Assembly: GCA_044221725.1 (NCBI GenBank)
Contig: JBGAON010000001.1
Span: forward strand, 335,480-399,479
Source of the DNA: Elusimicrobiota bacterium
Lineage (GTDB): Bacteria > Elusimicrobiota > Elusimicrobia > F11
Length of the DNA: 64,000 nt
Direction of reading: 5' to 3'
Every line of letters begins with the position of its first letter. The stretch's first letter is position 1. The notes under the pieces are model-generated. The model was given only the letters and a program-made list of their open reading frames with translations, made no database searches and was not told the origin of the DNA. The translations under genes and the position numbers were made by a program. Positions 2,296 through 61,528 of this stretch are shown piece by piece.

Positions 2296-2362
2296 GGTCA
2301 GTCAAATGGTCTATGGTCCAGGACCTATCGTTTATGGACTCAACGACCCCGCGACTCTTACA

Positions 2363-3493
2363 ATGAAAAAAAATATCGCAGCGATCATATTGGTATTCGC
2401 GACATTTGCCGTTGCCCGCATTTCATCCGCTGAGACAGAGATCAACACGCTTCAGCTGCGGGTGGACCCCGCCTATTTCTCCCCCGACGGTGACGGACTC
2501 CAAGACCAAACGTTTTTTTATCCGGTATTGAAATCGCAAGCCGAAGGTTCGCGTTGGACACTTGATATATCGGAAGCAAAACGTCATCGGCGCATAGTGA
2601 GGCTGAGCGGCGCTCGATGCCCGGCGCTGATTAAGTGGAGTGGCAACGATAAAAAAGATCAGATCGTCCCCGATGGTGCCTACGTTGCCAAGTTGACGGT
2701 GAGCGGAAAAAGATCCGAAGTTGTCGCCGAACAGACAGTGGTTGTGGACCGAAAACCACCCCAAGTAACGCTTTCCCTTTCAACCGCCGTTTTTGACAAG
2801 AGTTTTTTAGCCAACGGAGCGATCGCAATGACGCCTCGCGTATTCGACGATTCGCCGGTGGAGCGGTGGATCGTTCAGGTGCTGGATCAAACCGGGCGAA
2901 CCGTAACCGTAATGTCGTCGAGCGGGCCGGTGCATGACGTTGCGTGGGATGGCACGGATCGCAACACGAGCGTGCTGGTTCCACAGGGACGCTATCGCGT
3001 GGCGTTTCAGGCGTGGGACAAGGCCGGTAATCAAAGTGCTCCGTACTTCGCCAATTTAACTGTTAATGTCAGCGCCCGCGAAATGCTCGAACACTCGCTG
3101 CACGAGATCCAAGTAAACGAGACGCCGATGGGACTGATTGTTCAGCTCGATTCAAAAAATTTGTTCGTTGCACGGAAAAATAAAATTGAGTTATCGGATC
3201 CTGGGAAGGATACGCTGCGCGAGGTGGCAATCTTGTTGAACGCTTATCCCGCGGCGACCGTGAAATTGGACGGATATTCGCATCAGAAGAAAACCGCTTC
3301 GCTTGACCAACAGCAAGCGAGCCTGTTTGCCTGGCGAATTTACAGTTACTTGAGCAAAGCCGGCAACGTAAAAGCGTCGCGTGTTACCGTTCGCGGCCGC
3401 GGTCGTTCGGCGATGTTCGATCGCCGATCGGTTTCGGTGCCGCTCACAAAAAATGGTGTCGAAGTGATTTTGGAAGGAAGCGGGCCGTGGTGA
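2363..3493 (+). CDS. OmpA-family peptidoglycan-associated protein with two FlgD-like Ig domains
   Basis: Start moved to ATG 2363 (MKKNIAAIILVFATFAVARISSA signal peptide); the 2306 start would abut the tRNA. Two FSPDGDG.../WDG...VPDGAY beta-sandwich repeats. C-terminal OmpA-like domain (ATVKLDGYSH...RVTVRGRG). Confidence 0.65.
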   Translation: MKKNIAAIILVFATFAVARISSAETEINTLQLRVDPAYFSPDGDGLQDQTFFYPVLKSQAEGSRWTLDISEAKRHRRIVRLSGARCPALIKWSGNDKKDQIVPDGAYVAKLTVSGKRSEVVAEQTVVVDRKPPQVTLSLSTAVFDKSFLANGAIAMTPRVFDDSPVERWIVQVLDQTGRTVTVMSSSGPVHDVAWDGTDRNTSVLVPQGRYRVAFQAWDKAGNQSAPYFANLTVNVSAREMLEHSLHEIQVNETPMGLIVQLDSKNLFVARKNKIELSDPGKDTLREVAILLNAYPAATVKLDGYSHQKKTASLDQQQASLFAWRIYSYLSKAGNVKASRVTVRGRGRSAMFDRRSVSVPLTKNGVEVILEGSGPW

Positions 3494-41991: not shown

Positions 41992-42696
41992 ATGAATAAG
42001 AATAAGACAGTGTTGTCGTTGCTCTTGGGAGCCGCATTGGTTGGTGCCGGTGTGCTTTCGGCAGCGACACCGGATAAGAAAAAAGCAGGCAAGACCGCAG
42101 GAGCGGCCGCTTCAGACGATGTGTTTTATATCTATACCGAGCGTGGATCCCGATTGAACCATTACGTTCCGTCCGGTTGGATGGGCGATTACGGCGACAT
42201 CAAAATGAACCAAGGTTGGGTCAAAAATGCGCCAGCCAAAGATGCAAAAAAAGATTCAAAAGCTCCGTCCAAGGCGGAAGAGCCGAAACCAGGCGAAGAC
42301 ACCGTCATTCAGGTCAAATATTCGGCTGAGCGGAAGCAAGGCGCGGGATGGGCTGGAATTTATTGGCAGCATCCGGCCAACAACTGGGGCGACAAGCGCG
42401 GTGGCTTTGATTTGTCGTCCTATTCAAAACTGACGTTCATGGCGAAAGGTGAGCAGGGCGGCGAAGTCATCGATAAATTCTTCATTGGCGGCATTACCGG
42501 CCAAACGGAAGAAGGCGATTCCGATGAGGCTTCCTTGAGCCCGGTGACGCTCACAAAAGATTGGAAAAAATACGAAGTGTCGCTCAAAGGGCTTGATATG
42601 AGCCACATCATCGGTGGCTTTGGTTTCGCGGCGAACGCGGACGCCAACCCGAACGGCTTCACGATGTATCTCGACGACATCCGGTTGGAAAAATAA
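41992..42696 (+). CDS. secreted protein with CBM-like beta-sandwich module (copy 1 of a recurring module)
   Basis: Signal peptide; Lys/Ala-rich linker. Module GWAGIYWQHPANNWGDKRGGFDLSSYSKLTFMAKGE...MYLDDIRL is paralogous to modules in 42760..43911 and 53165..57142. Confidence 0.5.
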   Translation: MNKNKTVLSLLLGAALVGAGVLSAATPDKKKAGKTAGAAASDDVFYIYTERGSRLNHYVPSGWMGDYGDIKMNQGWVKNAPAKDAKKDSKAPSKAEEPKPGEDTVIQVKYSAERKQGAGWAGIYWQHPANNWGDKRGGFDLSSYSKLTFMAKGEQGGEVIDKFFIGGITGQTEEGDSDEASLSPVTLTKDWKKYEVSLKGLDMSHIIGGFGFAANADANPNGFTMYLDDIRLEK

Positions 42697-42759
42697 ATCT
42701 TCGCTTTGCCCCGTTCCGTCGTTCGCCTTGGCGAGCGGCGGAACGGGACGGAGATTTGA

Positions 42760-43911
42760 GTGAATTGGCGAAGTCACTTAGCATCCCCTCTTTTTTGCGG
42801 TTTTCTTTTGATAACCGCGCTCTCCACTAACAACTCTCAGGAACGATTGGGCGAAGCGCCCAAATCAGACGGCACCCCAAAAACCGTCGACTACAATATC
42901 ACGCGTGGTGAAGCGATTCCGGTCCCCGCAAAAAAGACCCGATTGCCGCTGGTGGTTTATGGCGACAGCAAAGGCGCCGTCGGCAGTTTCGCCCCAAGCG
43001 GATACATGGGCGATGTTGAATCGTTAAGAATCAAAGGCGCGGACTTTTCGGCACCGCTGACATCGTTGGGAGACGGAAGTTCGTGTTTGCGAGTTGAAGT
43101 GGTTCCTCGGGGTCGGCAAGGTTGGGCCGGACTCTATTGGCAAACGCCGGCCAACAATTGGGGAAAAATAAAAGGCGCGGGTTACGATCTTACGAAGGCG
43201 CAGCGGCTAACATTCTGGGCGCGCGGCGAAAAAGGCGGTGAGTTGATTGCGCAATTTTCGGTGGGAGGGCTTGTTGGTCCCTACCCCGATACCGATTCCG
43301 CGAAGCTTGGCCCCATTCGTCTCAACAAAGAGTGGACGCAGTATGTGATCGATCTCACAGCAAAAGATTTGCGCCACATTGTCGGAGGGTTTGAATTTAT
43401 CGTGCGGCGAACAGACAATCCACGCGGCGCGGTTTTCTACTTGGATGAAATTATTTTTCAAGGAGATGTGACCGTCAGCGAAGCACCGCCGCAGCCGCTC
43501 CCACCGCACCACGATTTAACGACGCAGCAGTTTCCCGAACCGTTGCCAACGATGCCGAAGCTAACAAAATCCGTTTTGGTGGTTGTTCCTTTTGACTCAG
43601 CAAAAACGGCGTTCGGCAAGGAAGGAACGGATTTGCTGAATGAAATTGCTGCCGTTTCGCACAAATACGCGGACGCTGCCATTCTTATTGAGGGTCACAC
43701 CGATAGCACGGGACCCGAAGCGGTCAATCAAAAACTATCCGAGATGCGTGCGAAAGCGGTGGCTGACTATTTGGTGACGAAAAACGTACCGCGCGAACGT
43801 ATGACGATAAAAGGGCACGGATCGGAACGGCCGGTACGCGAAGGAGCCAATTTGACGCCGGAAGGCCGAATGAAAAACCGTCGCGTGGAAGTAACGCTGG
43901 TGGCCCAGTGA
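42760..43911 (+). CDS. OmpA-family protein with N-terminal CBM-like beta-sandwich module
   Basis: GTG start. Module GWAGLYWQTPANNWGKIKGAGYDLTKAQRLTFWARGE...FYLDEIIF. Pro-rich linker. C-terminal OmpA domain (ILIEGHTDSTGPEAVNQKLSEMRAKAVADYL...RRVEVTLV). Confidence 0.65.
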   Translation: MNWRSHLASPLFCGFLLITALSTNNSQERLGEAPKSDGTPKTVDYNITRGEAIPVPAKKTRLPLVVYGDSKGAVGSFAPSGYMGDVESLRIKGADFSAPLTSLGDGSSCLRVEVVPRGRQGWAGLYWQTPANNWGKIKGAGYDLTKAQRLTFWARGEKGGELIAQFSVGGLVGPYPDTDSAKLGPIRLNKEWTQYVIDLTAKDLRHIVGGFEFIVRRTDNPRGAVFYLDEIIFQGDVTVSEAPPQPLPPHHDLTTQQFPEPLPTMPKLTKSVLVVVPFDSAKTAFGKEGTDLLNEIAAVSHKYADAAILIEGHTDSTGPEAVNQKLSEMRAKAVADYLVTKNVPRERMTIKGHGSERPVREGANLTPEGRMKNRRVEVTLVAQ

Positions 43912-44576
43912 AAAACCGAAACTTTTTCTTTTTGCTCGGAACGCTCGCTCTCGTGCCGGCCTGCGAGAAAAATCCTGTCGACAAACTGACGAATCCGTTG
44001 CCGAACGGTAGCGTTCCCCGATCCAGCGGTATTTATCCGATTTATCATGACGAGCTGGAAACGGGGGGTGGGCTTGGATTCATTCCTGGTGGCGAAAACC
44101 AGGTGATCGATTTGTTTGATAATTCGAGCCCCCGTCAGACCGCGCGTCAAATCCGCTACACATGGAATGGCGGCGATGTATCGGATGCGGAACACAGCAC
44201 CACCGCGCACACGTTTGCCGGTTTTTCGTTGTTGGTGACGCCAAACTTCTCCACCCTTTCGGCGGCGCCGGCAAAAGATCTTTCCACGGCCGGATACACA
44301 AAACTTACGCTTCTTCTCCGCGGTTCGTTGTCCACCGGCACCAAGCTGCGCGTTGAGGGGCCCAGCGACGGAACGGCAACCCCTGCTCGACAAGAGTTGG
44401 ATGCCGCGCAAATATCTCAAGCCTGGCAACTCGTGACGGTGGCCGTTCCGCCGTCTGATTTCTCCAATATCAAAACCTTCGCGACCATTTCGATTCAATA
44501 CACGCAGCCGCCTCGCACGACCAATCCAGGAGAAGGCGGAACAATTTACGTGACGCAGATTCAATATGAACGCTAG
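43908..44576 (+). CDS. hypothetical lipoprotein
   Basis: GTGA overlap with the upstream stop. Lipobox LVPAC. No recognisable catalytic motif. Confidence 0.5.
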   Translation: MKNRNFFFLLGTLALVPACEKNPVDKLTNPLPNGSVPRSSGIYPIYHDELETGGGLGFIPGGENQVIDLFDNSSPRQTARQIRYTWNGGDVSDAEHSTTAHTFAGFSLLVTPNFSTLSAAPAKDLSTAGYTKLTLLLRGSLSTGTKLRVEGPSDGTATPARQELDAAQISQAWQLVTVAVPPSDFSNIKTFATISIQYTQPPRTTNPGEGGTIYVTQIQYER

Positions 44577-45150
44577 GGCCGCGCTGTCTTTTCTATTGGT
44601 GACCCAAATGGCGGTAGCGTCGTGGGCGGCGGATTCTTCAGCGAGCGCGGCGGCATCTTCCGAAAGAGGAAACTACATTGGCGAAGCGGCCGAGGCGACC
44701 GTGGGGCGCGTGTTTGGTGTTGAGGGAGACGCCGCCGAAATAAATTATCACGTGTTTGAACTCACCTCTCATTCTCCGGCGAACGCGGCCATTCGCTCCG
44801 GCATCATCCCGGGTTGGGGACAGTATTTCAATAACGAGCGCGTGAAGGGTTCGGTTTTGTTCTTGGCCACATTGGGCGCGGTCGTCGCGAGCGTGCATCT
44901 TCACAATTCTGCCGAGAAATCTTACGACGATTACCAGGCGCTCGGACAGAAAGACAGTTCGTTGTACGATGATTACGAACGGGCGTACACCGGTTCCATC
45001 GTTCTTGGAAGCGCCGCTGCCGTTTTGTGGTTGGTTGGAATTTGGGACGCGCACCACAATGCGTATCATCCGCTCTATTCGAAAAATGTCACGGTGGATG
45101 TGGCGTACGCGGACAACACCTCTCAAATTCGCGTAAAGAAAAGTTTCTAG
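44566..45150 (+). CDS. hypothetical secreted/membrane protein with IIPGWGQYF motif
   Basis: Signal peptide. Internal hydrophobic helix (SVLFLATLGAVVASV) and C-terminal hydrophobic segment. Confidence 0.45.
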   Translation: MNARAALSFLLVTQMAVASWAADSSASAAASSERGNYIGEAAEATVGRVFGVEGDAAEINYHVFELTSHSPANAAIRSGIIPGWGQYFNNERVKGSVLFLATLGAVVASVHLHNSAEKSYDDYQALGQKDSSLYDDYERAYTGSIVLGSAAAVLWLVGIWDAHHNAYHPLYSKNVTVDVAYADNTSQIRVKKSF

Positions 45151-45204
45151 AAAAATTTCTTGTGCGAGCGCACCTTGATTTAATATTTTGTGCGTGGAGA
45201 ACCT

Positions 45205-46104
45205 ATGTTTTTACCCACTTTATTCAACCGTTTGAATAAAATCTGGCCCTGCGCATTCGTGGCGGGCATGATCGCAACAACTCTTATGCTGCCTGGCTGC
45301 AAAAAGAAAGAACGGCTCACCGCTTCGACGTTTTCATTTTCGATTACGCCTCCCGCCTCCACTGTTTTGAAGACCGAATCGATCACGCTCATGGCAAAAG
45401 GTTCGTCGGCGAGCGGATCGGTGGACGTGAACCCCACGTGGAGCGTGTCGCCCACAACGCTGGGTTCTTTGAACACCACAATCGGACGCAGCGTCGTTTT
45501 TCAACCGACCGGTCTGGGAGACGTGGTGGTCACCGGCGTGTATGACGGCATTGCGGCGACATCACAAATTGCGATTGTGACCTACAAGCCCACCGCAAAC
45601 ACATTTGATATTTATAACGACAACGGACTTCCCGCCGGCAGCGACGTGGACAGCGATATTTTTACGTCGGGCGGGCTTTCTCTCACCGAGCTTTCGAGCG
45701 GGTACACACCGGAAGGTTCAAAGTACGAACACACCACCAATGCGATCACGAACAATTTTTGGGGCGTGACCGTTGATAAACTGAATACGGGGAAGCGAAA
45801 AGATCTTTCGGGATTTTCATCCGGCGCTCTGAAATTCTCGTTGCGCCTTGCGCGGTCGCTTTCCGTGACAGAAAGCATTCGAATCGATATTGTAGATTCG
45901 GCGCAAACGGTTTCGTACACGTTGAGCAGCGGTTCCGATAATTACAATCGACTGAGCACCGATTGGCAAGAAATTTCGTTGTCGTTGCCAGCACGATTTG
46001 CAACATTGGATAGCGCTCATGTAAAAGTACCGTTTGTAATTGTTCCGACGGCGCTGGGTGCGCCGTTGACCTTTGACGTTGATGCCGTTCGTTGGGAGCG
46101 GTAG
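45205..46104 (+). CDS. hypothetical lipoprotein
   Basis: Start set at ATG 45205 with SD GGAGA. Lipobox-like LMLPGC. Thr/Ser-rich beta-rich sequence. Confidence 0.45.
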   Translation: MFLPTLFNRLNKIWPCAFVAGMIATTLMLPGCKKKERLTASTFSFSITPPASTVLKTESITLMAKGSSASGSVDVNPTWSVSPTTLGSLNTTIGRSVVFQPTGLGDVVVTGVYDGIAATSQIAIVTYKPTANTFDIYNDNGLPAGSDVDSDIFTSGGLSLTELSSGYTPEGSKYEHTTNAITNNFWGVTVDKLNTGKRKDLSGFSSGALKFSLRLARSLSVTESIRIDIVDSAQTVSYTLSSGSDNYNRLSTDWQEISLSLPARFATLDSAHVKVPFVIVPTALGAPLTFDVDAVRWER

Positions 46105-46145
46105 CCGGCGAAGAAAATTTTTTGATCGAATTAAAGCGCTTGAAT

Positions 46146-47423
46146 ATGAATGGACATCGGAGAACAACAGTTGATTTAAATTTTTGGGTGATGCCGAATG
46201 CGGGTATCGCCACGCGGCATATTTTAAAAAGCTTTATCGATGAGTTTGAGCAGCTTCATCCGGAAGTTCGCGTCAATCTCGTAATCCACCCATGGTCGCT
46301 GGCGTGGAATCGGGTCATGGATGTGGTGAAAGGACGCAACACGCGCAGTGTTCCCGACGTCATGCAAATTGGAACTACCTGGGTTACCACTCTTGGTTAT
46401 CTGGGAGCGCTCGAAGAAGTCCCCGACGTTCCGTTCGGGCCACGGGATCAACGCATTGCCACATCCATCGGAGATTCAAGTGCGTTTTGTATTCCGTGGT
46501 TTATCGACATTCGGGTGCTGTATTACCGAAAAGATATTTTTCAGGCGTTTCGAATTGACCCGGCACTTCTAAACGATTGGAAGGGGTTTGCGCGGGCGTG
46601 CGCGGAACTCAAAAAAAACCTTTCAAGCAAGTCCGGCAAATTCTCTCGGATCATTGCGCCCTTGGGGATTCCGGGGCAAAAGCCCGGCGTTTTGATGCAC
46701 GACTTGGCCCCGTGGGTGTGGGAAGCGGGTGGCGACTTTTGCGCCGATGATTTGCGCGACACGAATTTAAATCAGGCGACGCTCATCGACGGATGCAAAT
46801 TTTATTTTGACCTCATCGATCAAGGTTTTATGCCGGTGCCAAACAGCGCCTTGCCGGCCGGAAATTTTTTCACGGGACATTACGCCATGCAGTTTTCGGG
46901 CAGCTGGCCGATCGATTCTTATTTGAATCCGACGTGGACCTACGCTGATCCCGACGTTGCAGCAAACGCCGGAGTGATGCCACTTCCCGAAGGACCTCAG
47001 GGGCGATACACGTTTTTGGGCGGCAGCAATTTGGCGGTACCGTCCTCGGCTCGGCATCGTGAAATCGCCTGGGAATTTGTGAATTTTCTTGTCGACCCTG
47101 TCCGGATCGTCAAGCATGCTCGGGGCATTGGTGCGTTACCCGCACGGCTGTCCGGTATGGAAAACTTGTTTGAACGGTTCCCGGCGGCCAAAGAAGTGTT
47201 TTTTAGTTCGTTCGGTTACGCGCGGCGTTTGCCCCGACTTGTGGAGCTCGGATCCATCGAGCAGATTATCTACAAGATGGGCGGTCGTTTGCTGTCCGCC
47301 GTTCGCGAAGGCTCTTACAACCAGAAGCGACTCCAGCAAGAAATAAACACCGCGAACAATGAAATTCGCTCGTTGCTGTCGATACACCGGTATGGTACGC
47401 GAATTTCGCAGGTAACCGCATGA
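46146..47423 (+). CDS. family-1 solute-binding-protein homologue lacking an obvious signal peptide
   Basis: MalE/UgpB-like conserved N-lobe (NLVIHPWSLAWNRVMD...TWVTTLGYLGALEEV). No hydrophobic leader at either candidate start (46092 or 46146). Stop overlaps the downstream GGDEF gene start (ATGA). Confidence 0.55.
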   Translation: MNGHRRTTVDLNFWVMPNAGIATRHILKSFIDEFEQLHPEVRVNLVIHPWSLAWNRVMDVVKGRNTRSVPDVMQIGTTWVTTLGYLGALEEVPDVPFGPRDQRIATSIGDSSAFCIPWFIDIRVLYYRKDIFQAFRIDPALLNDWKGFARACAELKKNLSSKSGKFSRIIAPLGIPGQKPGVLMHDLAPWVWEAGGDFCADDLRDTNLNQATLIDGCKFYFDLIDQGFMPVPNSALPAGNFFTGHYAMQFSGSWPIDSYLNPTWTYADPDVAANAGVMPLPEGPQGRYTFLGGSNLAVPSSARHREIAWEFVNFLVDPVRIVKHARGIGALPARLSGMENLFERFPAAKEVFFSSFGYARRLPRLVELGSIEQIIYKMGGRLLSAVREGSYNQKRLQQEINTANNEIRSLLSIHRYGTRISQVTA

Positions 47424-48982
47424 GCCAATTTCGTGCCCTCTTGGTATACGAAGAATTGTTGCGCTGTTTTCAGAACCACATGACGGCCTCGCACTTGGGA
47501 ATGGAACAGGCCTTTGAGTCGGGTTTTGGCTATTTGGCTTCGCGTCTGCGCCTCGAGCATGTGAGTTTGTTTTGGTGGGACCCTCATCGGCACGCGTTTA
47601 CCATGCAATATATTTTGCAAGACGGCGCGCTCATGGAAGGCGAGGATGAGATCGTCGTTGATGAGACAAGCGCGCTGCGTCCGTTGATTCAAGAGCGACG
47701 TCCGGTCGTTGTTTCCGAAAAGAAACCGTGGGCTGCGTTTCTACCGCTACAAATTGGAACGGAATTGTTGGGGGCGGTTCGACTGCAGCGGGCGCATCCG
47801 TTACCGAAAGGAAAAGTTTTGCTTCCGCTTTCACCGCTTATTACTCCGCTCGGTTCCCGAGCGAACGGGAATGGCAAACACTCGACAAAAGATCGGCTCA
47901 TGCCGTTTCTCGAAGACCTTGGCGACATATTCTCGATCCGATTTCATCAGTTGATTCGTGATGAAAAACACAAAAAGAAGGCCCAGGTTCTTCAAGCCAG
48001 CTCCGAAGTTGCGACCGCTGTTTTTGAGCGGCCGCGCTTGCGCGATATGTTGGAAGCGGTTTCCCGCAGCATTGTGCGAAATCTCGGGTTTGATCGCGTG
48101 CGCGTGTTTCTTGTGGACGTTGAGCAAACAAAACTCGAAGGAATTCTCGGACTGCAAATTCCCGACATGCTATTGGACATGACGGGCGAAAGTTATCCGC
48201 TGAGACCCAACACGAATTCGTTGGTTGACATGGTTCTCTCAGCAAAAGGGGCGTCGCACGTTCATCTCGTGGGGGGCCGTGTGGTTTACGTGCCGCTGAT
48301 TGTGAATAGCCAAGTGATTGGTTGTTTGGCGGCCGATAACTTGCTCAGTCAGCAATTGATAGACGAGGAGCAAATGGAAGCGCTTCGCACACTTACCGGC
48401 CAGATAGGCATGGCCGTGTTGAACGCGCGACTCTTCGAAGACATTGAACAGCAAGCGATCACGGACGGATTAACAAAGCTTTATGTGCACCGGTACTTCC
48501 AGCAGCGTCTCAAGGAAGAGATTGATCGCGCGGATCGCTACTCGTACAACATTGCTTTGATCATGATGGATGTCGATCACTTCAAGGCGCTGAACGACAG
48601 CCATGGGCATTTGATGGGCGACAAGGCGCTCGAGTATTTGTCGCAAGTGATTCGAAGCAACATTCGCCGAATCGATTTGGCCGCTCGGTATGGCGGGGAC
48701 GAGGTGGTGCTCGTTCTGCCGGAAATCACCGAACAGGAAGCGCTGCTGATGGGGGAGCGTTTGCTAAACGCAGTAAAAAAGGGAGTTCTTATTTCGTCGG
48801 ATGGGGCGAAGGTGCAAATGTCGGTTAGCATGGGTGCGGCGCTTTATTCGACGGACGCCCGCAACGCCCGGGACCTCATTGATGCGGCGGACAAAGCCCT
48901 GTTTTGGTCGAAGAAAAATGGGCGCGGCAACATCTGTTTCTACCGAACGATCCCCGCGCCGACCGAAAAAACAACGGCTTAA
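47420..48982 (+). CDS. GAF-domain diguanylate cyclase (GGDEF)
   Basis: Two GAF-like regions, then the GGDEF domain (DGLTKLYVHRYF...ALIMMDVDHFKALNDSHGHLMGDKAL...RYGGDEVVLVLP), active-site variant GGDEV. No TM segment. Confidence 0.85.
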   Translation: MSQFRALLVYEELLRCFQNHMTASHLGMEQAFESGFGYLASRLRLEHVSLFWWDPHRHAFTMQYILQDGALMEGEDEIVVDETSALRPLIQERRPVVVSEKKPWAAFLPLQIGTELLGAVRLQRAHPLPKGKVLLPLSPLITPLGSRANGNGKHSTKDRLMPFLEDLGDIFSIRFHQLIRDEKHKKKAQVLQASSEVATAVFERPRLRDMLEAVSRSIVRNLGFDRVRVFLVDVEQTKLEGILGLQIPDMLLDMTGESYPLRPNTNSLVDMVLSAKGASHVHLVGGRVVYVPLIVNSQVIGCLAADNLLSQQLIDEEQMEALRTLTGQIGMAVLNARLFEDIEQQAITDGLTKLYVHRYFQQRLKEEIDRADRYSYNIALIMMDVDHFKALNDSHGHLMGDKALEYLSQVIRSNIRRIDLAARYGGDEVVLVLPEITEQEALLMGERLLNAVKKGVLISSDGAKVQMSVSMGAALYSTDARNARDLIDAADKALFWSKKNGRGNICFYRTIPAPTEKTTA

Positions 48983-49181
48983 GAATTTCCTTCGAAACGG
49001 CGGTCAAAAGTGGTAGAAAGCCGCCGCTAAAAACAACATCCCCCTCCCTAACAAAACGCGTTGAAACGACGGGTTCTTTTGCGCCCAAAATGTTTGCAGC
49101 TTTTTAACGATTTCTTAAGGAGATCTTAAGGGAGGGTTGTCTAGAATCGAAGTAACCGATGTCGGACCTTCGGTGTCTTAG

Positions 49182-50171
49182 ATGAGTTGGATTATGGGCA
49201 TGAAACGCAACGGCGTGCATTTCTTGAAATTCCTTTTCCTCGGGCTGATGTTGAACGCGGGGATTTCGTGCACAGCATCCGCTGCTTTTCAAGAAGCTCT
49301 CTGGGGCGCTCGCCCCGCTTCTCTTGTTGGTGCCTACACCGCTCTTGCCGATGACTCAAATTCGCCCGCCTACAACCCCGCCGGAATCAGCATGCTCTCG
49401 CAGAATGAACTCACGTTTATGTACGCCCGGCTTTTCTCGGGTGTTAATTTTTATGCCGGGGAAGACACCTCGCGTTTGGGTCTCGGTTATTTCAGTTTCG
49501 CTCCAAACATTCGGGACAAGAAATACGGCAGTTACGCGATCAGTTGGAGCAATTTCGCCGCCACAAATCTTTACCGTGAAGACACTCTTACTTTTACCGC
49601 CGCCGATTCGTACCAGTTTGAATCGGTAAATTCCAAACCGATTTTATCGTATGGCGCGAATTTGAAATTCTTGCGCCGTTCGTTTTCGACCGATCAACGC
49701 ACGGACCAAGATCCCGTGTTCAAAAACGGGCGGGATTCAACAGGGGTAACACTTGATGCCGGTCTTCAATTGCGCCCGAACTGGAACGTTTTGCCCGGTT
49801 TGCGTTTCGGTTTAACCGGACAAAATTTAACCGAACCCGACATTGGTTTGGCCGCTACCGATCGCGTCCCGCTCCGCGTGGCTTTTGGCGCCGCTTACCA
49901 AGATCCGAACCTTCCGCTTTTTGGCCCCGCTGTGGAAATTTCTCAGCGCTCGGGTCGCACGCTCGTTACGGGCGCCTGGGAAACGTGGGTCTCAAAAAAC
50001 ACGCTCGCGTTTCGCGCCGGTGCGAACGCCGATGAAATCGGCGGCGGCGTGGGATATCAATTTCGTCTGCTAAGCAAAATGATGATGCGTTTCGATTACG
50101 CGATTCTGTGGCCGCTGAACATTGACGGCACCAACGGAAGTCATCGCGTGTCGATCTCAGCATCGTTTTGA
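49182..50171 (+). CDS. outer-membrane beta-barrel protein, FadL/PorV/PorP-SprF-like
   Basis: Signal peptide (alternative start ATG 49200 MKRNGVHFLKFLFLGLMLNAGISCTASA). NPAG motif (SPAYNPAGIS). C-terminal aromatic residue (...RVSISASF) typical of OM beta-barrels. ~300 aa mature. Confidence 0.55.
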   Translation: MSWIMGMKRNGVHFLKFLFLGLMLNAGISCTASAAFQEALWGARPASLVGAYTALADDSNSPAYNPAGISMLSQNELTFMYARLFSGVNFYAGEDTSRLGLGYFSFAPNIRDKKYGSYAISWSNFAATNLYREDTLTFTAADSYQFESVNSKPILSYGANLKFLRRSFSTDQRTDQDPVFKNGRDSTGVTLDAGLQLRPNWNVLPGLRFGLTGQNLTEPDIGLAATDRVPLRVAFGAAYQDPNLPLFGPAVEISQRSGRTLVTGAWETWVSKNTLAFRAGANADEIGGGVGYQFRLLSKMMMRFDYAILWPLNIDGTNGSHRVSISASF

Positions 50172-50231
50172 TCAGCAGATGAATGTTGTTCAGGCTTTGT
50201 AGAAAAGTAATTGGCTCAAAGGAGAGCAAAA

Positions 50232-51065
50232 ATGAAAAAGAAACTAGCAGTACTCGCGTTTGTCGCAACAGCGATCGGCGCATGGACGCCGTCGTGGGCG
50301 TTCCAGTTGGTTCAAATCGAAACAGTAACCGCGACGGCGGTGACAGGAGGAGCGAAGGTTGCGCGGTTTAACTTCGTTATTCGTGACGCTGCGAACGTAA
50401 ACGGCCCGAACCGTCCGAACCTCGGATGGTCCGGTGTTGATCCTCTGTCAACCCAATGGAAAATGTCAGATCAGGTTATCGTGATGGCTTCCACGGTTAC
50501 CGACGCTGCCGGTGGTATTCAGATCCACACCGACAACACGGCGGCCGATGCATCGCCGAAGTTTGTTGATCCGACCCCGGGCAACCTCATTAATCCAGAT
50601 TCGAACGCTGCCGGTTTGTTGCAGGGCACCTCGGGAGTAACGTCAACGGTTTTGCCGATGGCGTGGAGCATTAAGGACTCGTCGCGTACCGTTGAAAGTG
50701 GAACCGTCAATACCGGAATCGGCGCCGCCGATCCAAACAACGGCCCAATCACGGCGGTCTACAACACGAAGTATCAGTGGCTGTTCGTGACCGATAAATT
50801 CAACGTGCAAGGTATCGACTACAGCGGTGATGGGCTCGTAACGCCTGGTCCAAATTCTCCGGACGCCGCTCCGTTCGTGAATGGCGCCAAGTACATCACG
50901 ATGCGCAACTCGACCGGTATTCACTTCGGTCAAGCGGATGGTGAGTTTGCGTCGGTTCCTCAGGGACAAACGAACTATGTTTACTTCGAAGCCAACTTCT
51001 TGGGTTCGCAAGTGCAACAGACGTATCAAACAACGACTCTGCGTCTGGAAGCCTTCATCCAATAA
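50232..51065 (+). CDS. secreted protein sharing a C-terminal module with the 1325-aa surface protein
   Basis: Start at ATG 50232 with SD AAAGGAGAG. Signal peptide cleaved before AFQLVQIET. The region IQIHTDNTAADASPKFVDPTPGNLINPDSNAAGLL...MAWSIKDSS...YVYFEANF aligns to the last ~200 aa of 53165..57142. Confidence 0.6.
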   Translation: MKKKLAVLAFVATAIGAWTPSWAFQLVQIETVTATAVTGGAKVARFNFVIRDAANVNGPNRPNLGWSGVDPLSTQWKMSDQVIVMASTVTDAAGGIQIHTDNTAADASPKFVDPTPGNLINPDSNAAGLLQGTSGVTSTVLPMAWSIKDSSRTVESGTVNTGIGAADPNNGPITAVYNTKYQWLFVTDKFNVQGIDYSGDGLVTPGPNSPDAAPFVNGAKYITMRNSTGIHFGQADGEFASVPQGQTNYVYFEANFLGSQVQQTYQTTTLRLEAFIQ

Positions 51066-51068
51066 CGA

Positions 51069-51884
51069 TTGTTCGGAGTTTCGATCATGATTAAAACGCC
51101 AGAGTGGTGGAACCGAAAGGTTCCGCCACTCGGCGGTTTTTTCACGTTGCTTCTTTTGGCGGGTGCGCCCCCTGCGGCGCGCGCGTTCGAAATTGCGCCG
51201 TCTTACCAGTTGTTAAAGGCGCAGCCCGGGAAATCCGTGGACTCGCAATTAACATTAACGAACACCGACCAGGAAGAAATCAGCGTTGAACCAGAAGCCA
51301 AGGATTGGCAATCGCTCGAGGTGAACCGTGGGATCAAGGTGGCTGATTGGTTGTCTGTGGATAAGAAAATGTTTTTCTTGAAGCCCGGCCAATCGCGAAC
51401 CATTAAGTTCTCGGCGCGTGTGCCAAAAAATGCGCACGGCGAGCTTATGGGAATGCTTTCTTTTGCCACGAAAAAGGAATCGGCTCAATCCATCACGTTC
51501 AAACTGAGCTCAGCGGTTTATGTCGAAGTGGTTGGTACACAAAAGATCGACGCGCACGTGGACGCTATTACGATTCAATTGTCATCAAACACGCAGGTGG
51601 GATTGCTTGTGATCAATCGAGGGAACATCCATGTTCGTCCTCACTCCTACGTTCAGATTCTCAACGAAAAAAAGAGCCCGGTAGGCAACGTGGTCATTGC
51701 GCAGAATGAGCCTGTTTTCCCCGGAATACCAAAGCCAATTTTCGGAACCATTAGAAATTTTCGTTTGCCCGCGGGGACGTACACCGCACAGATTTCGATG
51801 CAAGACACGGACCACAACATGGAATTTCAGCCCGTGACAAAAAAGTTTTCGCTTTCGGAGAAAGGGGAGTTGACCGAAAAATAG
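51069..51884 (+). CDS. periplasmic hypothetical protein, possible PapD-like/Ig-fold chaperone-like
   Basis: N-terminal hydrophobic leader. Mature N-terminus AFEIAPSYQLL. Beta-strand-rich with LTLTNTDQEEISVEP and LKPGQSRTIKF, resembling pilus-chaperone N-domains. Weak. Confidence 0.3.
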   Translation: MFGVSIMIKTPEWWNRKVPPLGGFFTLLLLAGAPPAARAFEIAPSYQLLKAQPGKSVDSQLTLTNTDQEEISVEPEAKDWQSLEVNRGIKVADWLSVDKKMFFLKPGQSRTIKFSARVPKNAHGELMGMLSFATKKESAQSITFKLSSAVYVEVVGTQKIDAHVDAITIQLSSNTQVGLLVINRGNIHVRPHSYVQILNEKKSPVGNVVIAQNEPVFPGIPKPIFGTIRNFRLPAGTYTAQISMQDTDHNMEFQPVTKKFSLSEKGELTEK

Positions 51885-51890
51885 CTTTGT

Positions 51891-53165
51891 ATGAGAGACC
51901 GGAAACGTAAAAATAATTGGAGTGGCGGCTTCGCTCTGGTGCTTGGTTTGGCGCTGGCTGCTTTCTTGCGCCCTGTTTCTGCATTCCAGATTGTGCAGAC
52001 CTCCAATGTTACGTGCCGCGTGGTGATTGGCGGAGTTCCTCCGGGCAAATTGAAGTTCCAGCATAATCCTCTTCAAAAGGTTTCCCCGGTGGACGATATG
52101 ATCATTATCATGGGTCAGGCTGGTTCCGAAGTTTTACCGACCCAGCCCACGTACGAAGAGTCGCTTAAAACGAATTCGGATTTTGGGCCAGCAGAAGATC
52201 GGAAGATCCGCGTCGTTGTTCAATACCGATTTGTTCCCTCGCTCGATAATCAAGACTCCGTGCCGTTCGTAACGTCGAGCAATATCGAGGGTCCGGATCC
52301 TACACCGTTTGCTTTTCAAATTGATCCGGCGTCCGTTCAACCCGGTTTCTTCCAATATCGGTTTGTCGCAACCGGATTGAATTTCGTGAACGGGCAGCTT
52401 GTCCCGATTTCACAAACAACCGGAGAATTGTTTACGGTTGGTGTGCAGGCCAACGCAAGCCAGGTTTTCGGCCCGGCGGGCGGCACGTTTATTCTTGCGA
52501 ACGGAAACCAAGCAGTCGGCCAAACATCGTTGGCAATTCCTTCCGGTGTGTTTCGGCAGCCAACAACGGTTTCAATCGATGAGATTCCCTCGAATAGCCC
52601 CAGTGTTCCTGCTGGACTTAACAATCCAATCAGCGTGTTTCATCTTGATTCCGACGGGCCGGCACGCGGAATTTTCCAGTTATCGCTTGTGTATCCGGAC
52701 TTTGAATATCCGCGAGGTCGCGACGGGGTTGTTGATGGCACGAATATTCCGGTTCAAAACCTTTCAATCCAGTGGTGGGACGGGTTTGTGTGGCGCGGTG
52801 GCGGCGGGACAATCAACACAAAGACAAATACAATCTCGACGCGCATCAGCGCTTTGAGTTTCGTCGCAATAATGGCGGCGCCTGTGATGACGCCGGAGGA
52901 TCGGCGACCGCTGGAACGCGTGATCACACCGAATAGCGACGGCATTAACGATGTGCTCAATTTTGCGTTTGGTGATTTGGCCGAAGATGTAAAAGTGGAG
53001 ATTTTTGATGTCGGCGGTCACCGCGTGCGAACGCTTCATAGTTTGACAAACATGCAATGGGATGGTCGCGATGATGACGGCAAAGTGGTGGAAAGCGGTG
53101 TTTACATTTATCAATACGACGTCAACAGCAAACGCATCAGCGGCGTCGTCGCGGTGGCGAAATAA
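51891..53165 (+). CDS. secreted protein with T9SS type-B (gliding-motility-associated, CHU_C-like) C-terminal sorting domain
   Basis: Signal peptide cleaved before AFQIVQTSN. C-terminus ITPNSDGINDVLNF...VKVEIFDVGGHRVRTL...WDGRDDDGKVVESGVYIYQYDV matches the type-B CTD. Confidence 0.65.
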   Translation: MRDRKRKNNWSGGFALVLGLALAAFLRPVSAFQIVQTSNVTCRVVIGGVPPGKLKFQHNPLQKVSPVDDMIIIMGQAGSEVLPTQPTYEESLKTNSDFGPAEDRKIRVVVQYRFVPSLDNQDSVPFVTSSNIEGPDPTPFAFQIDPASVQPGFFQYRFVATGLNFVNGQLVPISQTTGELFTVGVQANASQVFGPAGGTFILANGNQAVGQTSLAIPSGVFRQPTTVSIDEIPSNSPSVPAGLNNPISVFHLDSDGPARGIFQLSLVYPDFEYPRGRDGVVDGTNIPVQNLSIQWWDGFVWRGGGGTINTKTNTISTRISALSFVAIMAAPVMTPEDRRPLERVITPNSDGINDVLNFAFGDLAEDVKVEIFDVGGHRVRTLHSLTNMQWDGRDDDGKVVESGVYIYQYDVNSKRISGVVAVAK

Positions 53166-56100
53166 TGGAAGCGAATAACTATTGTCGTCATTCCCGCGAA
53201 AGCGGGAATCTAGGTCTCAAGCAATTTTTTGAATTCAGGCTCAAAGCCTGGATTCCCGCTTTCGCGGGAATGACGTTATTGCTTTTGCCCGGACTGGTTC
53301 ATTCCGAAGCGACGAAGGAATATACGCGCGACGCCGGAATTTATAGCGCGAACCCGTTCAGTATCTTCACGTTCTCGTTTAGCTCGATCAACGTTGATTT
53401 TGATTCCACGTCGGACCCGAACCCGCCAGAGGGATTAAAAGTCGCGAGCACAACCGTCGCGACCCAATGGGGAGGATGGGGAATATTCAATACGACCGCG
53501 ATGGGCAACAACGTCGTTACCGATTTGAATTTTTCGGACTATGTGAACGGGCATTTGCGATTCTGGTTAAAAAGCCAAATTGCGCTTGATGTAAAGATCG
53601 AATATCAGCAGGGGTCGAATGCCGTGCAAGTTTCCAGCAGCGTGGCCAGCACAGGCAACGCGTGGAAAGAAATTGTAATTCCATTGCAGTCGGGTGGCTT
53701 TGGTCTAAACAACGGTCAGATGAACCGCATCCGTTCTCCATTTATTGTGGTGGCTCCGCAAACGACCGGCGTGCAAAAGCAATGGTTCATCGATCACGTG
53801 CGCTGGACAAAACCTGTCACGTCCATCGTTATGTATCCGCCGTCGACCACGGTTCAACAAGGTTTCCACCGCTTGTTTACCGCGGAAGGTCGCGATGCCG
53901 CGAACGAACGTGTCATTATTTACCCCACGTTCAGTGTTTCTCCGACGGTCGGAACATTTACTCCGGCTGACCCGACTCCGGTCACAGCGTCACGCTTGAA
54001 CGCGACCGGCGCGAGCGGCGTTGCAAACGCGGTTTTTTCACCGCTATCGGCGTCCTCCGTGGTCACCATTACCGGATCTCACATTAATGACGAGCTTGGG
54101 TTGCTTAGTGAAACAATCCCGTCGTCGTTGATCCTTAATACTGACAGCGAGTTGGATGTGTCCTCGGGCGGCGGCGGGACGGATCCGGTGTTATTGGATG
54201 AATCGAGCAGTGATGTACGGGAGGGCGTGCGCCGTTTTAAAACGACCATCAGCGCGCAGCCGGCGAATGGCTTTAGCGGGTGGTTTATTCAATGGAGTAC
54301 GAACGCCGCGAACACGGTGACACGCGACATGAGCAATTATTACGACGGATCGTTGCGGTTCTGGTTCAAAGGTCCGGCCGCTCTACAAAACGTACTCCAG
54401 ATTTCTGTTCGGTCCGGAAATACCGAAGCGGGCACCGAACTATCAAAAGTGAATCTCAAGAACTACGTGACGTTCGATGACACGTGGCGACCGGTTGTCA
54501 TTCCCATTTCCGATTTCACTGGTGCGCGGCCCAAAGCCGATTTGTCGCGCATGAAAATATTGTTCGGAGCTTTTGCGGTCGGTGCCGTTGGAAGCGTACA
54601 AACGTTCTATATCGATAATCTTCGCTGGGACACAAATATTCCCGGCGCGCTGGCATCGCTCACGGTGTCGCCAGCATCGGTGACGGTTCCGCTTTCAGCG
54701 AAACGCCAATTCGTCGCCAAAGGCTTCGACGCGAACGGCGTGTCCGTTGACATCTTCCCAACATGGACAATCACCGGTGGCATCGGTTCGGTAAACCCAT
54801 CGCAGGGGGCCATCACGCAATTGACCGCCGCCAGCTCCGCGCAATCGGGAACTCTCAAAGCCAGTCAAGGAGCGGTATCAGCGACCGCGTCGGTAAACGT
54901 GGCCGATGTTCAATGGGTGCAGTCGTTCAACGTGTATTCGGACAATGGGTCTGGCGGATTTGTTGGAGTTGCTAAGGGAACGAACAACGGCACCGTGATG
55001 AATTTGAGCGAGCAAAATTTGGGCGCGGGCGTGGCGCCCGAAGGAAAATTTGTGCGCCAATCGAACTACACACTCGTTAACAATCCGAATCTTCAAGACG
55101 CGTTCGCGATTTGGTTCACCAACGCGGACGCGGGCACCGGCTCGCGCTTCATGCATTACTTTGATACGGGCTATCTTTATTTTTGGGTACGCACGACTCA
55201 GGACCTACAAATCTCGATTCGCTCCGCCAACATAACAGCGGGGAACGAGCGTTCGAAATTTCGATTGAGTGAGCTTGGTGTTCCGCTCGACAACAATTGG
55301 CAGAAAGTGGTGATCGCGCTTGCCGATTTCAAGAACCGCGAACCGCTTTTGGATTTTGACCAGATTCAAACGTATTTCGCTATCGGCGCCGTGTCGTCGC
55401 AGATTGGGCCTGTTACGAACCAAACGTTTGACGTCGATGATGTGAAATGGCTCACGAACAATCCGGGCCAGCCCGACGACAACAAGATTTACATTGGTCT
55501 CAAAGAGAAACAGGCCGCGGGGGGGCTTGTGCGGTCGTTCGATACGTTGCTCGATGCGTACACCTACGATCAGGCGCTTGCCGCTATGAATTACACGTAC
55601 CGAAAGGACGTGGCGTTATCCAAAAAAGTTTTTGACGTTTATAAATATGTCCATGATAATTACGGCGGTACCTTCAGCGGTTTTCACGAGGATTACAACA
55701 TCAATTCGGCGGTGGGCGGGTACACGGTGCTGAATAGCAGTCGCGTCGCCGGGCCAAACGCTTGGATTCTTCTCGCGATGATTCATTACCGGAATGTAAC
55801 GGGTTCCACCGCGTACGACACGGTGATTAACGACGTGGCGGCGTGGTTGCGCGGATTGCAGGGGGCTGACGGTGCTGTGCAGTTTGGGCGTGTAAATTCG
55901 ACATTGATCACTCTTAAATCCACCGAACACAATTTCGATGTGGTGGCCGCGTTTCGCGCGTACGCAAAAATGAGTGGCAACAGTGCGTACAACAGTTACG
56001 CGGACGCCGCGCGCAATTGGCTTCAGACACAAATGTACGTTCCCGCCCAGCAACGTTTTAACGTGGGCACGTACGCGAACGGAACCACAAACACGGATCG

Positions 56101-57142
56101 TGCGCTCGACGCTTATTCGTGGGCCCCTCTCGCCCTTTCCTCCTTCACGAACGTGTTGACGACCGCCGAGACCGATTTCAAGAACACAAAGGTGTGTGAT
56201 TTGACGGGACTCAGTGTCACGGGATTTGATTTTTCGGGTCCACCCAACTTTGGCCCCGACTTGGACGCGGTGTGGTTGGAGGGAACAGGCCAAATGGCGC
56301 TTGCCTATTACCTTACCGACAATCTCGCGAAAGGCGATTTTTACCTGCAAGAGCTCGATAAAGCGATCGTGAACACGTCCGCCAACGGCCAGGGCATGGC
56401 GTACGCGACGAACAACGGCACCGCCTACGGTTTTAATATGAATTCGCTGAATCCAGCCATAAGTTCAATGGCGTGGTATCTGTTTGCAAAGCAGAAATTC
56501 AATCCGTTCAAGCCTTATCCGATTTATGAGTTAAAAATCATGGACACGGCGTCCGGGACCGAACGTTCGTCGGTTGGCTTTACGGTTTCGGTTCCCGCGG
56601 CATGGGTGCGAGCGGATCAATACATCAAGCTCGATGTGCAACCGAATTCGGTCGATCCGTGGGGCTTGCAAATTTTGACGGATAACACGCAGCCAACCGT
56701 GGTTCCTCGTTTTGTTGATCCCACGCCGGGAACAACGTCCAATTCGGACTCGAATCCAGCGGGACTCCTTTTGGAATTGACCGGTCAAACAACAACGCCG
56801 TACCAAATCAACATGGCGTGGAGCGTCAAGGATACGAGCGCAACCGCCACCATGCCAATCGCAACCGATCCAAATTCCGGCGCGCCAAACTCCTTTCAGT
56901 GGATTTTTATGAAAGACCGCGCGACTCCAGACATTCCTTCAATGAACACGGTCGCGTTTGCGAACGGGCAAGATGATGTGATTGTTCGAAAAGCCGTGAG
57001 CGGAAGTCATACGTCCCAGGGACCTGCCGGATACACCGCTTCCGTTTCGCCGGACTACTTATTTCTAGAAGCAAATTTTAATTCCGCTGCGGCCCAGGTC
57101 CGCTACTTAGCGCATATCACGTTCGAATTTTTCCTGCAATGA
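53165..57142 (+). CDS. 1325-aa secreted multidomain surface protein (3 CBM-like beta-sandwich modules, 2 Big_2 Ig-like domains, alpha/alpha-toroid-like domain, C-terminal shared module)
   Basis: ATG overlaps the upstream stop (TAATG), but the first 35 codons are the translation of the palindromic element (SRESGN / IPAFAGMT). A more plausible start is ATG 53270. Repeated ...LRFWLKS / LRFWFKG / LYFWVRT modules. Big_2 segments (TVSPASVTVPLSAKRQFVAKGFDANG). Central GPNAWILLAMIHY...TG module. Last ~200 aa paralogous to 50232..51065. Confidence 0.6.
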   Translation: MEANNYCRHSRESGNLGLKQFFEFRLKAWIPAFAGMTLLLLPGLVHSEATKEYTRDAGIYSANPFSIFTFSFSSINVDFDSTSDPNPPEGLKVASTTVATQWGGWGIFNTTAMGNNVVTDLNFSDYVNGHLRFWLKSQIALDVKIEYQQGSNAVQVSSSVASTGNAWKEIVIPLQSGGFGLNNGQMNRIRSPFIVVAPQTTGVQKQWFIDHVRWTKPVTSIVMYPPSTTVQQGFHRLFTAEGRDAANERVIIYPTFSVSPTVGTFTPADPTPVTASRLNATGASGVANAVFSPLSASSVVTITGSHINDELGLLSETIPSSLILNTDSELDVSSGGGGTDPVLLDESSSDVREGVRRFKTTISAQPANGFSGWFIQWSTNAANTVTRDMSNYYDGSLRFWFKGPAALQNVLQISVRSGNTEAGTELSKVNLKNYVTFDDTWRPVVIPISDFTGARPKADLSRMKILFGAFAVGAVGSVQTFYIDNLRWDTNIPGALASLTVSPASVTVPLSAKRQFVAKGFDANGVSVDIFPTWTITGGIGSVNPSQGAITQLTAASSAQSGTLKASQGAVSATASVNVADVQWVQSFNVYSDNGSGGFVGVAKGTNNGTVMNLSEQNLGAGVAPEGKFVRQSNYTLVNNPNLQDAFAIWFTNADAGTGSRFMHYFDTGYLYFWVRTTQDLQISIRSANITAGNERSKFRLSELGVPLDNNWQKVVIALADFKNREPLLDFDQIQTYFAIGAVSSQIGPVTNQTFDVDDVKWLTNNPGQPDDNKIYIGLKEKQAAGGLVRSFDTLLDAYTYDQALAAMNYTYRKDVALSKKVFDVYKYVHDNYGGTFSGFHEDYNINSAVGGYTVLNSSRVAGPNAWILLAMIHYRNVTGSTAYDTVINDVAAWLRGLQGADGAVQFGRVNSTLITLKSTEHNFDVVAAFRAYAKMSGNSAYNSYADAARNWLQTQMYVPAQQRFNVGTYANGTTNTDRALDAYSWAPLALSSFTNVLTTAETDFKNTKVCDLTGLSVTGFDFSGPPNFGPDLDAVWLEGTGQMALAYYLTDNLAKGDFYLQELDKAIVNTSANGQGMAYATNNGTAYGFNMNSLNPAISSMAWYLFAKQKFNPFKPYPIYELKIMDTASGTERSSVGFTVSVPAAWVRADQYIKLDVQPNSVDPWGLQILTDNTQPTVVPRFVDPTPGTTSNSDSNPAGLLLELTGQTTTPYQINMAWSVKDTSATATMPIATDPNSGAPNSFQWIFMKDRATPDIPSMNTVAFANGQDDVIVRKAVSGSHTSQGPAGYTASVSPDYLFLEANFNSAAAQVRYLAHITFEFFLQ
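53187..53274. repeat. MITE-like palindromic element: perfect 24-bp terminal inverted repeats flanking 40 bp
   Basis: GTCATTCCCGCGAAAGCGGGAATC (53187-53210) and its exact reverse complement GATTCCCGCTTTCGCGGGAATGAC (53251-53274). Each arm is itself a hairpin (ATTCCCGC-GAAA-GCGGGAAT). The central 40 bp contains a further hairpin AGGCT-CAA-AGCCT. Confidence 0.75.
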
Positions 57143-61391: not shown

Positions 61392-61528
61392 TTCCCTTGA
61401 GGGTATCCCCAAGAGTCTTCGTTTTCGAGTCGGTTGCCCGTCGAAAACGAGCCGAAAAGACTAAGTGTTGCTTTGCTCGGTCTTTGATAGCATTATCGCG
61501 GTCCAAAAAAACAAGATAGGGAGGATGT

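Follow-up and report, generated by a model that had tools for sequence, protein, structure and literature searches.

Carbohydrate-binding modules (CBMs) of family 30 are known from the Clostridium thermocellum enzyme CelJ (Cel9D-Cel44A; CAZy family 30, Pfam PF21582, structures 1WMX, 1WZX and 2C24) and are type B modules which bind beta-glucan and xyloglucan chains (PMC10992016). Family 11 is represented by the module of Lic26A-Cel5E from C. thermocellum (PF03425; structures 1V0A and 6R3M), and the depositor titles of 6r3m and 6r31 name a beta-1,3-1,4 mixed-linkage glucan tetrasaccharide as the ligand. Here we describe a protein module which is repeated in the genome of an uncultured Elusimicrobia bacterium, on a stretch of 64,000 nucleotides (contig JBGAON010000001.1, positions 335,480–399,479; hereafter the window, in whose numbering all coordinates are given). 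We suggest that this module belongs, as a divergent member, to the CBM30/CBM11 branch of the beta-jelly-roll (galactose-binding-domain-like) CBMs and that it is put to two uses, as a set of CBMs in one large protein and as the binder of an envelope gene cassette. We put the probability of this combined reading at about 0.6.

The repetition of the module is genuine: seven copies are present in five genes, all on the plus strand, and fall into three subfamilies. The first subfamily comprises gA (42121–42693, amino acids (aa) 44–234; gene 41992–42696), a stand-alone secreted module, and gB (42943–43467, aa 62–236; gene 42760–43911), in which a signal peptide precedes the module and a proline-rich linker leads from the module to a C-terminal OmpA_C domain. 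The second is gC (44025–44573, aa 40–222; gene 43908–44576), a putative lipoprotein with the orthologue consensus GCKKNP. The third type is found once in gE (45589–46101, aa 134–304; gene 45190–46104), which is also a putative lipoprotein (LPGC motif) and carries an Ig-like domain in front of the module, and three times in the large gene gBig (53165–57142), at aa 55–217 (53327–53815), aa 320–492 (54122–54640), and aa 583–766 (54911–55462). A preliminary description of this DNA had listed five copies of about 150 aa in three genes. The five motifs quoted there are present in these genes and their homology is above chance, as judged by BLASTP, profile hidden Markov models (HMMs), shuffled controls, and hhalign; the copies in gC and gE had been missed, and the module is about 165–190 aa long. 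No further copy was found in the window, as no other open reading frame (ORF) matches either the HMM of the gA/gB type or that of the gBig type.

Within the subfamilies the relationship is evident at the level of single sequences. gA and gB are plainly paralogous, with 37 % identity over 185 aa (BLASTP E 2e-36), and the HMM of the gA family matches gB with an E value of 3e-65. The gE module matches the three copies of gBig in BLASTP (E 1e-11, 5e-6, and 2e-4) as well as gC (E 4e-4). The three gBig copies have no mutual BLASTP match, but each one is found once an HMM is trained on the other copies, the first with 36 bits (E 2.7e-10), the second with 63.8 bits, and the third with 42.6 bits (E 2.8e-12); the gE copy reaches 32.2 bits in the same leave-one-out procedure, in which the best of 999 shuffled sequences scored at most 11 bits. 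As a single sequence gC is marginal (6.7 bits). A homologue search with the five-module alignment retrieved mainly orthologues of gC, and a profile of 30 gC orthologues is aligned by hhalign to the gBig type with 92.6 % probability (E 4.6e-7) and to the gA/gB family with 96.8 % (E 2.6e-10). A chance or low-complexity origin of the likeness is rejected by the shuffle controls, and an origin from mobile elements or repetitive DNA is unsupported, as the copies share 18–37 % identity at the protein level and the base composition stays even along the locus. Searched for homologues by word index, the second gBig copy returned a single fragment of 131 aa, and gBig and gE as translated here are absent from that collection.

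Between the subfamilies the likeness is more remote. There is no direct BLASTP match between the gA/gB group and the gBig group, and an HMM of the gBig type misses gB (2.4 bits), as would be expected if two unrelated beta-sandwich families had come to resemble each other by convergence or by chance. This explanation is highly improbable and we regard it as effectively refuted. An HMM made from the gBig/gE/gC-type modules alone matches gA with 23.8 bits (E 2e-6), where shuffled sequences reach at most 4.5 bits. In addition, hhalign aligns the gBig-type profile to the gA/gB family profile over 123 columns with 97.3 % probability (E 1.8e-11), and the probability is still 93 % (E 3.4e-7) when gC is removed from the gBig-type profile. 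The aligned blocks are G-W..W, D-L-S-x-Y, L-x-F-W-x-K-G, W-x-x-V-x-I, and the final strand Y-[IL]-D-x-[IV]-R-[WL]. Furthermore, a library of 1.84 billion proteins contains bridging proteins whose repeats are matched by both HMMs at the same positions; one of them (P0189) consists of eight tandem gA-type modules which are matched by both HMMs and by Pfam CBM30. Finally, the gA/gB group and the gBig group each lead independently to CBM30.

The module can be placed beside CBM30 because three lines of evidence agree: the Pfam score of the second gBig copy, a family-wide profile, and the predicted fold of gA. The second gBig copy scores 35.8 bits against Pfam CBM30 within the whole protein and 30.8 or 31.0 bits as an excised segment of 183 or 173 aa, respectively, at a threshold of 27 bits; the corresponding copy of a gBig orthologue (P0123) reaches 51.2 bits. 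A profile of 43 diverse family members (A6) searched against the sequences of the PDB finds CBM30 (2c24/1wmx) with an E value of 8e-15 and CBM11 (1v0a/2lro) with 1e-6. As single sequences, 12 of these 43 members match Pfam CBM30, 3 match CBM_11, and 7 match PF18329. The gA/gB family profile can be aligned to a CtCBM30 fragment as well (39 % identity over 67 columns, E 1.2e-4), at a probability of just 55.6 %. For the gA module AlphaFold (AF2), supplied with 24 family sequences, predicts an all-beta structure of 11 strands (predicted local distance difference test, pLDDT, 87.8; predicted template-modelling score, pTM, 0.83). When the model is compared with the PDB by Foldseek, the top matches are three CBM30 crystal structures (E 6e-7 to 9e-6, template-modelling (TM) scores 0.56–0.65), and the modeled beta-jelly-roll is superposable on 1WMX and 2C24. 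CBM11 follows, and then CBM8, 4, 29, and 16 mixed with a few non-CBM proteins; the best 50 fold matches are mostly carbohydrate-binding modules. The CBM-like beta-sandwich that had been proposed earlier is thus borne out, and the family which could not be named at that time has its nearest neighbors in CBM30 and, in second place, CBM11.

Carbohydrate binding by any of the copies, as well as the glycan concerned, we infer from sequences and models. The tryptophan-rich segment of 2c24, SGWWISLLTLRGW, is aligned with the conserved G-W..W segment of the module family. The residues which are invariant in gA and gB are mostly aromatic or polar (W77, W82, Q83, N87, and W89), a composition typical of the clefts of type B CBMs, and both proteins have invariant motifs of their own, PSGWMGD and GWAG[IL]YWQxPANNWG. 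gA, gB, and gC are likely to bind a glycan as well; the invariant positions of the gA/gB family, mostly Trp, Gln, and Asn, lie in the segment aligned to the Trp-rich strand of CBM30. Literature searches on the key residues of CBM30 and on CBMs of Elusimicrobia yielded no primary source for the binding residues.

The case for carbohydrate binding is strong for gBig, because its modules precede a domain which resembles glycoside hydrolases (GHs), and weaker for gA, gB, gC, and gE. The AF2 model of gBig aa 768–1125 (55466–56539) has 12 helices arranged as an (alpha/alpha)6 toroid (pLDDT 92.2), and the best Foldseek match is the methylmannose-polysaccharide hydrolase MmpH (7qsj, E 3e-9, TM 0.72–0.75). 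Further fold matches are dextran dextrinase, GH76, GH8, and a series of entries named 'Glycosidase' (5z3a–5z3e, 7c24/7c25), which we take to be the GH15 isomaltose glucohydrolase. Sugar epimerases are also among the matches, and the identity is about 11 % in all of them. The segment has no sequence match in Pfam or the PDB, and the whole gBig protein retrieves only noise from the PDB sequences; the domain is therefore called glycoside-hydrolase-like by its predicted fold alone. At least 14 full-length orthologues of gBig (36–56 % identity) share its architecture. The neighboring protein g726 is weakly similar to the (alpha/alpha)6 domain (E 0.03–0.06), and an ORF of 652 aa in a related locus (L011) matches gBig aa 785–1116 (E 1.6e-23) and also g726. 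The domain and its relatives may form an unclassified GH-like family. We suggest that in gBig the three modules would act as classical CBMs which hold the GH-like enzyme on a glycan chain.

The modules of gBig alternate with two spacers, aa 216–312 (53810–54100) and aa 494–582 (54644–54910). Both spacers and aa 49–129 of gE (45334–45576) are copies of one repeated domain of about 90 aa with mutual E values of 1e-9 to 1e-21; the spacer HMMs match the gE segment with 1e-9 and 6e-7. The preliminary description had coupled the module to Big_2 Ig-like domains. The alternation with repeated Ig-like domains holds, and the Big_2 identity is not confirmed by Pfam: the isolated segments of gBig and gE have no match to Pfam Big_2 (PF02368) at E values up to 10, and the spacer HMMs match the Pfam-verified Big_2 domains of protein P0240 in register but weakly (domain E 1e-3 to 1.5e-2, the former for the second spacer). 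To call the spacers Ig-like is reasonable, and to call them Big_2 is not established. The C-terminal domain of gBig (about 200 aa, aa 1126–1325, 56540–57139) is paralogous to the protein g284 (50211–51065; BLASTP E 5e-19), and neither belongs to a Pfam family.

A palindromic hairpin, TTCCCGC-N4-GCGGGAA, occurs three times in the window (53191–53208, 53253–53270, and 35436–35453), where 0.05 copies are expected by chance. Two of the copies fall within the 5′ end of gBig as annotated, where they are read as '...RESGNLG...WIPAFAGMT', and the hairpin-derived peptide is also found at the N-terminus of two gBig orthologues (P0122 and P0129). Translation of gBig probably begins at the ATG at 53271, with MTLLLLPGLVHS followed by EATKE, because the mature orthologues start with AEATKE.

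The other use of the module concerns the genes near the 5′ end of the locus. Upstream of about 36.8 kb the window contains housekeeping genes (DnaB, alanine racemase, MlaD, and CysS). From 36834 onward the genes are on the plus strand, starting with a sugar ATP-binding cassette (ABC) importer (a substrate-binding protein (SBP) and two permeases) and extending through g726 (57139–59319); g698 (59316–61412) is on the minus strand, and g726 and g698 encode large proteins without a family match. The importer lies directly 5′ of g654 (39988–41952, plus strand), which encodes a secreted protein of 654 aa and is the first gene of a conserved cassette. g654 is followed by gA, gB, gC, the gene of a DUF5683 protein (44566–45150, plus strand; Pfam 31.7 bits, syntenic in many loci), gE, an SBP-like gene, a GAF-GGDEF gene, g329, g284, g271, g424, gBig, g726, and g698. 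The g654 protein has no match in Pfam, NCBIfam, or the PDB sequences, and its core likewise matches neither Pfam nor the PDB; it is presumed to be an outer-membrane protein. Apart from this gene string, the window contains a 1925-aa ORF (18301–24078) in which Pfam recognizes a D-2-hydroxyacid dehydrogenase domain (aa 1077–1405) and nothing else.

The coupling of the module to an OmpA anchor, which had been noticed before, is confirmed for gB: aa 278–380 (43591–43899, plus strand) match OmpA_C (PF00691) with 66.1 bits (E 3.6e-18; threshold 27.2 bits), and OmpA-like domains of the PDB are found with E values down to 2e-17. A second OmpA-related protein is encoded at 2306–3493, where an FlgD_ig domain precedes a borderline match to OmpA (26.0 bits). 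Since the ligand of OmpA_C domains is the peptidoglycan of the periplasm, gB is more likely a periplasmic than a surface protein, and the surface location suggested by the preliminary description is unsupported as it was stated. Scans with Pfam and NCBIfam found no catalytic domain in gA, gB, gC, or gE. We suggest that these proteins would be non-catalytic glycan binders, gA as a free protein, gB tethered to peptidoglycan by its OmpA_C domain, and gC and gE as lipoproteins, the last with a module of the same subtype as those of gBig. Together with g654 and the DUF5683 protein, gA, gB, and gC would form an envelope cassette right after the sugar importer, which could capture or pass on glycan chains, or else oligosaccharides, at the outer membrane or beneath it on their way to the importer. 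The cellular location of these proteins as well as a physical complex with g654 we infer from domain content and gene order.

The gene string g654-gA-gB-gC-DUF5683-gE recurs across the Elusimicrobiota including the Endomicrobia, as seen when 80 genome loci were compared, and in most Elusimicrobiota loci the g654 orthologue is directly upstream of gA. The nearest homologues of gA, gB, and gC are proteins from metagenome-assembled genomes (MAGs) named 'Elusimicrobia bacterium'. In a relative with a 66 %-identical gA, the genes from the ABC importer to the CHU_C gene are arranged as in the window, except for one more gene, GH2_C, which lies between permease and g654. The orthologue of g654 has an OmpA domain at its C-terminus in four relatives (L012 5058–7820, L016 5015–7879, L018 5101–7836, and L034 5082–7805), and in three of these four the gB orthologue is devoid of OmpA_C; in the window OmpA_C is on gB and not on g654. 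The peptidoglycan anchor moves between neighboring genes of the cassette, as the sequences indicate, and the presence of OmpA_C either on gB or on g654 depending on the lineage suggests that g654 and gB act together.

This exchange of the anchor invites a further-reading hypothesis, which we consider tentative and on the whole rather unlikely: g654, gA, gB, gC, the DUF5683 protein, and gE might form an undescribed peptidoglycan-tethered outer-membrane complex found across the Elusimicrobiota, with arrays of gA-type proteins in the Omnitrophota. The CBM30-like jelly-rolls would be its glycan-handling or envelope-organizing subunits, the transfer of the anchor between gB and g654 would mark the physical association of the two proteins, and the complex would be a functional counterpart, assembled from other components, of Sus-like glycan capture or of an outer-membrane–peptidoglycan tether.

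The gA/gB type is widespread. With the gA/gB alignment as query, such a gene was found in at least 567 species-level genomes, which belong to Elusimicrobiota and Omnitrophota or are MAGs labeled Planctomycetia. The gA-type proteins of Elusimicrobiota and Omnitrophota are about 50 % identical, and MAGs of Endomicrobiellum, presumably endosymbionts of flagellates, also carry gA-type genes. Candidatus Omnitrophota have tandem arrays of three to four gA-type paralogues of about 200 aa each (L015 6537–8504, L025 5882–8504, and L063 6456–9105), and these arrays are found without the g654/gC/DUF5683/gE cassette. None of the 722 matches of the gA family has a Pfam domain, and none bears a source name other than 'hypothetical protein'. 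The gBig-type profile matches 826 representative clusters. In relatives the module is fused to GH2_C/GH72-like TIM barrels (P0193, P0225, and P0261), and other fusion partners of the family are Big_2, Big_7, CHU_C, and FlgD_ig. The GH-like domain of gBig, these GH-fused relatives, the GH2_C gene in the cassette of one relative, and the adjacent importer constitute a setting of carbohydrate-active enzymes which supports the assignment to the CBM30/CBM11 branch and the proposed roles.

Several observations weigh against this assignment and these roles. Six of the seven copies, all but the second of gBig, are undetected by the Pfam CBM30 scan, and the gA/gB profile alone finds nothing among the PDB sequences. 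The alignment of the gA/gB family profile with the CtCBM30 fragment begins downstream of the Trp-rich segment. gA and gB are reachable from CBM30 solely by profile–profile or structural comparison. In addition, gA, gB, gC, and gE have no catalytic partner, so that they fall outside the strict CAZy definition of a CBM. The high conservation of the gA type and its presence in Endomicrobiellum fit a housekeeping role in the envelope better than foraging, and the OmpA_C fusion of gB argues for the periplasm and not for the surface.

Such a housekeeping role could be structural. The jelly-rolls of gA, gB, and gC might have lost sugar binding and, together with g654 and the OmpA anchor, serve in Elusimicrobiota and Omnitrophota as a tether or scaffold between the outer membrane and peptidoglycan. 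The spread of the gA/gB-type gene over hundreds of species including Endomicrobiellum and its conservation between phyla, the conserved cassette with an anchor that shifts between partners, the lack of a catalytic domain in the cassette of the window, and the lack of a direct PDB sequence match of the gA profile are all compatible with this role. Moreover, proteins of the same fold which are not CBMs also match, namely the flagellar sheath protein FlaA1 and CIA30, and gA has a weak score against the NCBIfam model choice-of-anchor J (NF038128; 21.7 bits, E 1.9e-4), which is below the 30-bit cut-off. On the contrary, the nearest neighbors of the module in fold and in sequence are sugar-binding modules, most of its invariant positions are occupied by Trp, Gln, or Asn and do not resemble a hydrophobic protein interface, a sugar importer and GH-like proteins are encoded in the same locus, and the cassette of one relative includes a GH2_C gene. 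We therefore consider a purely structural function of gA, gB, and gC unlikely.

If glycan binding is accepted, the glycan need not be a foreign one. In the cellulose and alginate systems, polymers are guided by CBM-like domains located in the periplasm (BcsB and AlgX, respectively), and gA, gB, and gC might accordingly bind one of the cell's own glycans, such as peptidoglycan strands, lipopolysaccharide, or a periplasmic exopolysaccharide, in an export or biofilm apparatus controlled by cyclic di-GMP (c-di-GMP) and not in uptake. The periplasmic place implied by the OmpA_C tether would suit such a function, and two groups of genes further downstream could be read in the same way. One is the SBP-like gene (46092–47423), which has no obvious signal peptide and overlaps by 4 bp with the gene of a GAF-GGDEF diguanylate cyclase (47420–48982); the pair is kept within the locus, is syntenic in a relative (L001), and may be a sugar-sensing c-di-GMP module. 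The other is the group g329 (a UPF0164-like barrel), g284, g271, and g424, which is kept in two relatives (L001 and L056) and has the look of a module for secretion or for a surface structure, here outside the Bacteroidota; g424 has a CHU_C-like domain at its C-terminus similar to those of type B substrates of the type IX secretion system (NCBIfam 33.7 bits at a cut-off of 35), and g284 and g424 share the N-terminal motif AFQ[LI]VQ. Nevertheless, no glycosyltransferase, polymerase, or flippase is found in the locus, all parts of a sugar ABC importer are encoded next to it and in synteny, and gBig and its relatives look degradative. Thus, handling of a self-made glycan appears quite improbable, and we favor the reading of the module as a CBM30/CBM11-like binder which serves the GH-like enzyme gBig and, in the envelope cassette, the capture of glycans.

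The fold, the superfamily, and the occurrence of multiple CBM-like repeats in carbohydrate loci were known already and are routine; beta-sandwich repeats of this kind are common in carbohydrate-related loci, and in this respect the finding is of the expected kind. New are the divergent clade of the CBM30/CBM11 branch, which had escaped annotation, the occurrence of its modules on their own or tethered through OmpA, the Elusimicrobiota-wide cassette, and, probably, the (alpha/alpha)6 GH-like family. The module allows hundreds of 'hypothetical proteins' to be addressed at the level of a family, and it draws attention to the conserved envelope cassette and to the likely new GH-like family in phyla whose biochemistry has hardly been studied by experiment. 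Should the modules prove to bind a defined glycan, this would add a distant clade to CBM30/CBM11 and give a clue to the diet or to the envelope organization of these uncultured bacteria.

When the locus is compared with the described systems, the OmpA_C-anchored envelope proteins of the Pal, YiaD, and YfiB type share with gB a clear OmpA_C domain at the C-terminus. The equivalog scores of the NCBIfam scan are all far below the cut-offs, and the Pfam and NCBIfam scans revealed no family which pairs a CBM30-like module with OmpA_C (the literature was not searched for this pairing). CBM11 is second best by fold and by sequence and is weaker than CBM30, and no copy in the window matches the CBM_11 model of Pfam. 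CBM30 has the same beta-jelly-roll fold as the gA model and shares with the module the block D-L-S-x-Y ... L-x-F-x-x-K-G-x-x-G-G-E ... W-x-x-V-x-I-P-L; as in CBM30, the modules of gBig are appended to a domain which is GH-like. On the other hand, the identity is just 15–17 % in the Foldseek alignment of the gA model, and gA, gB, gC, and gE are stand-alone, lipoprotein, or OmpA-fused forms and not parts of enzymes, with motifs of their own in gA and gB. The surface glycan-binding proteins (SGBPs) encoded in polysaccharide-utilization loci of Bacteroidota, such as SGBP-B with its xyloglucan-binding domain (PF18329), offer a further comparison. PF18329 is above its threshold in two gBig orthologues (P0123, 29.7 bits; P0131, 35.2 bits), and the copies of the window match it weakly (16 bits). 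The window differs from the Bacteroidota loci as it has no SusC/SusD pair and as its importer is an ABC system. Nevertheless, both kinds of loci bring together an outer-membrane protein (a presumed one in the window), hydrolases, and a sugar transporter, and gE resembles the SGBPs in being a non-catalytic lipoprotein in which an Ig-like domain is followed by a terminal beta-sandwich binder.

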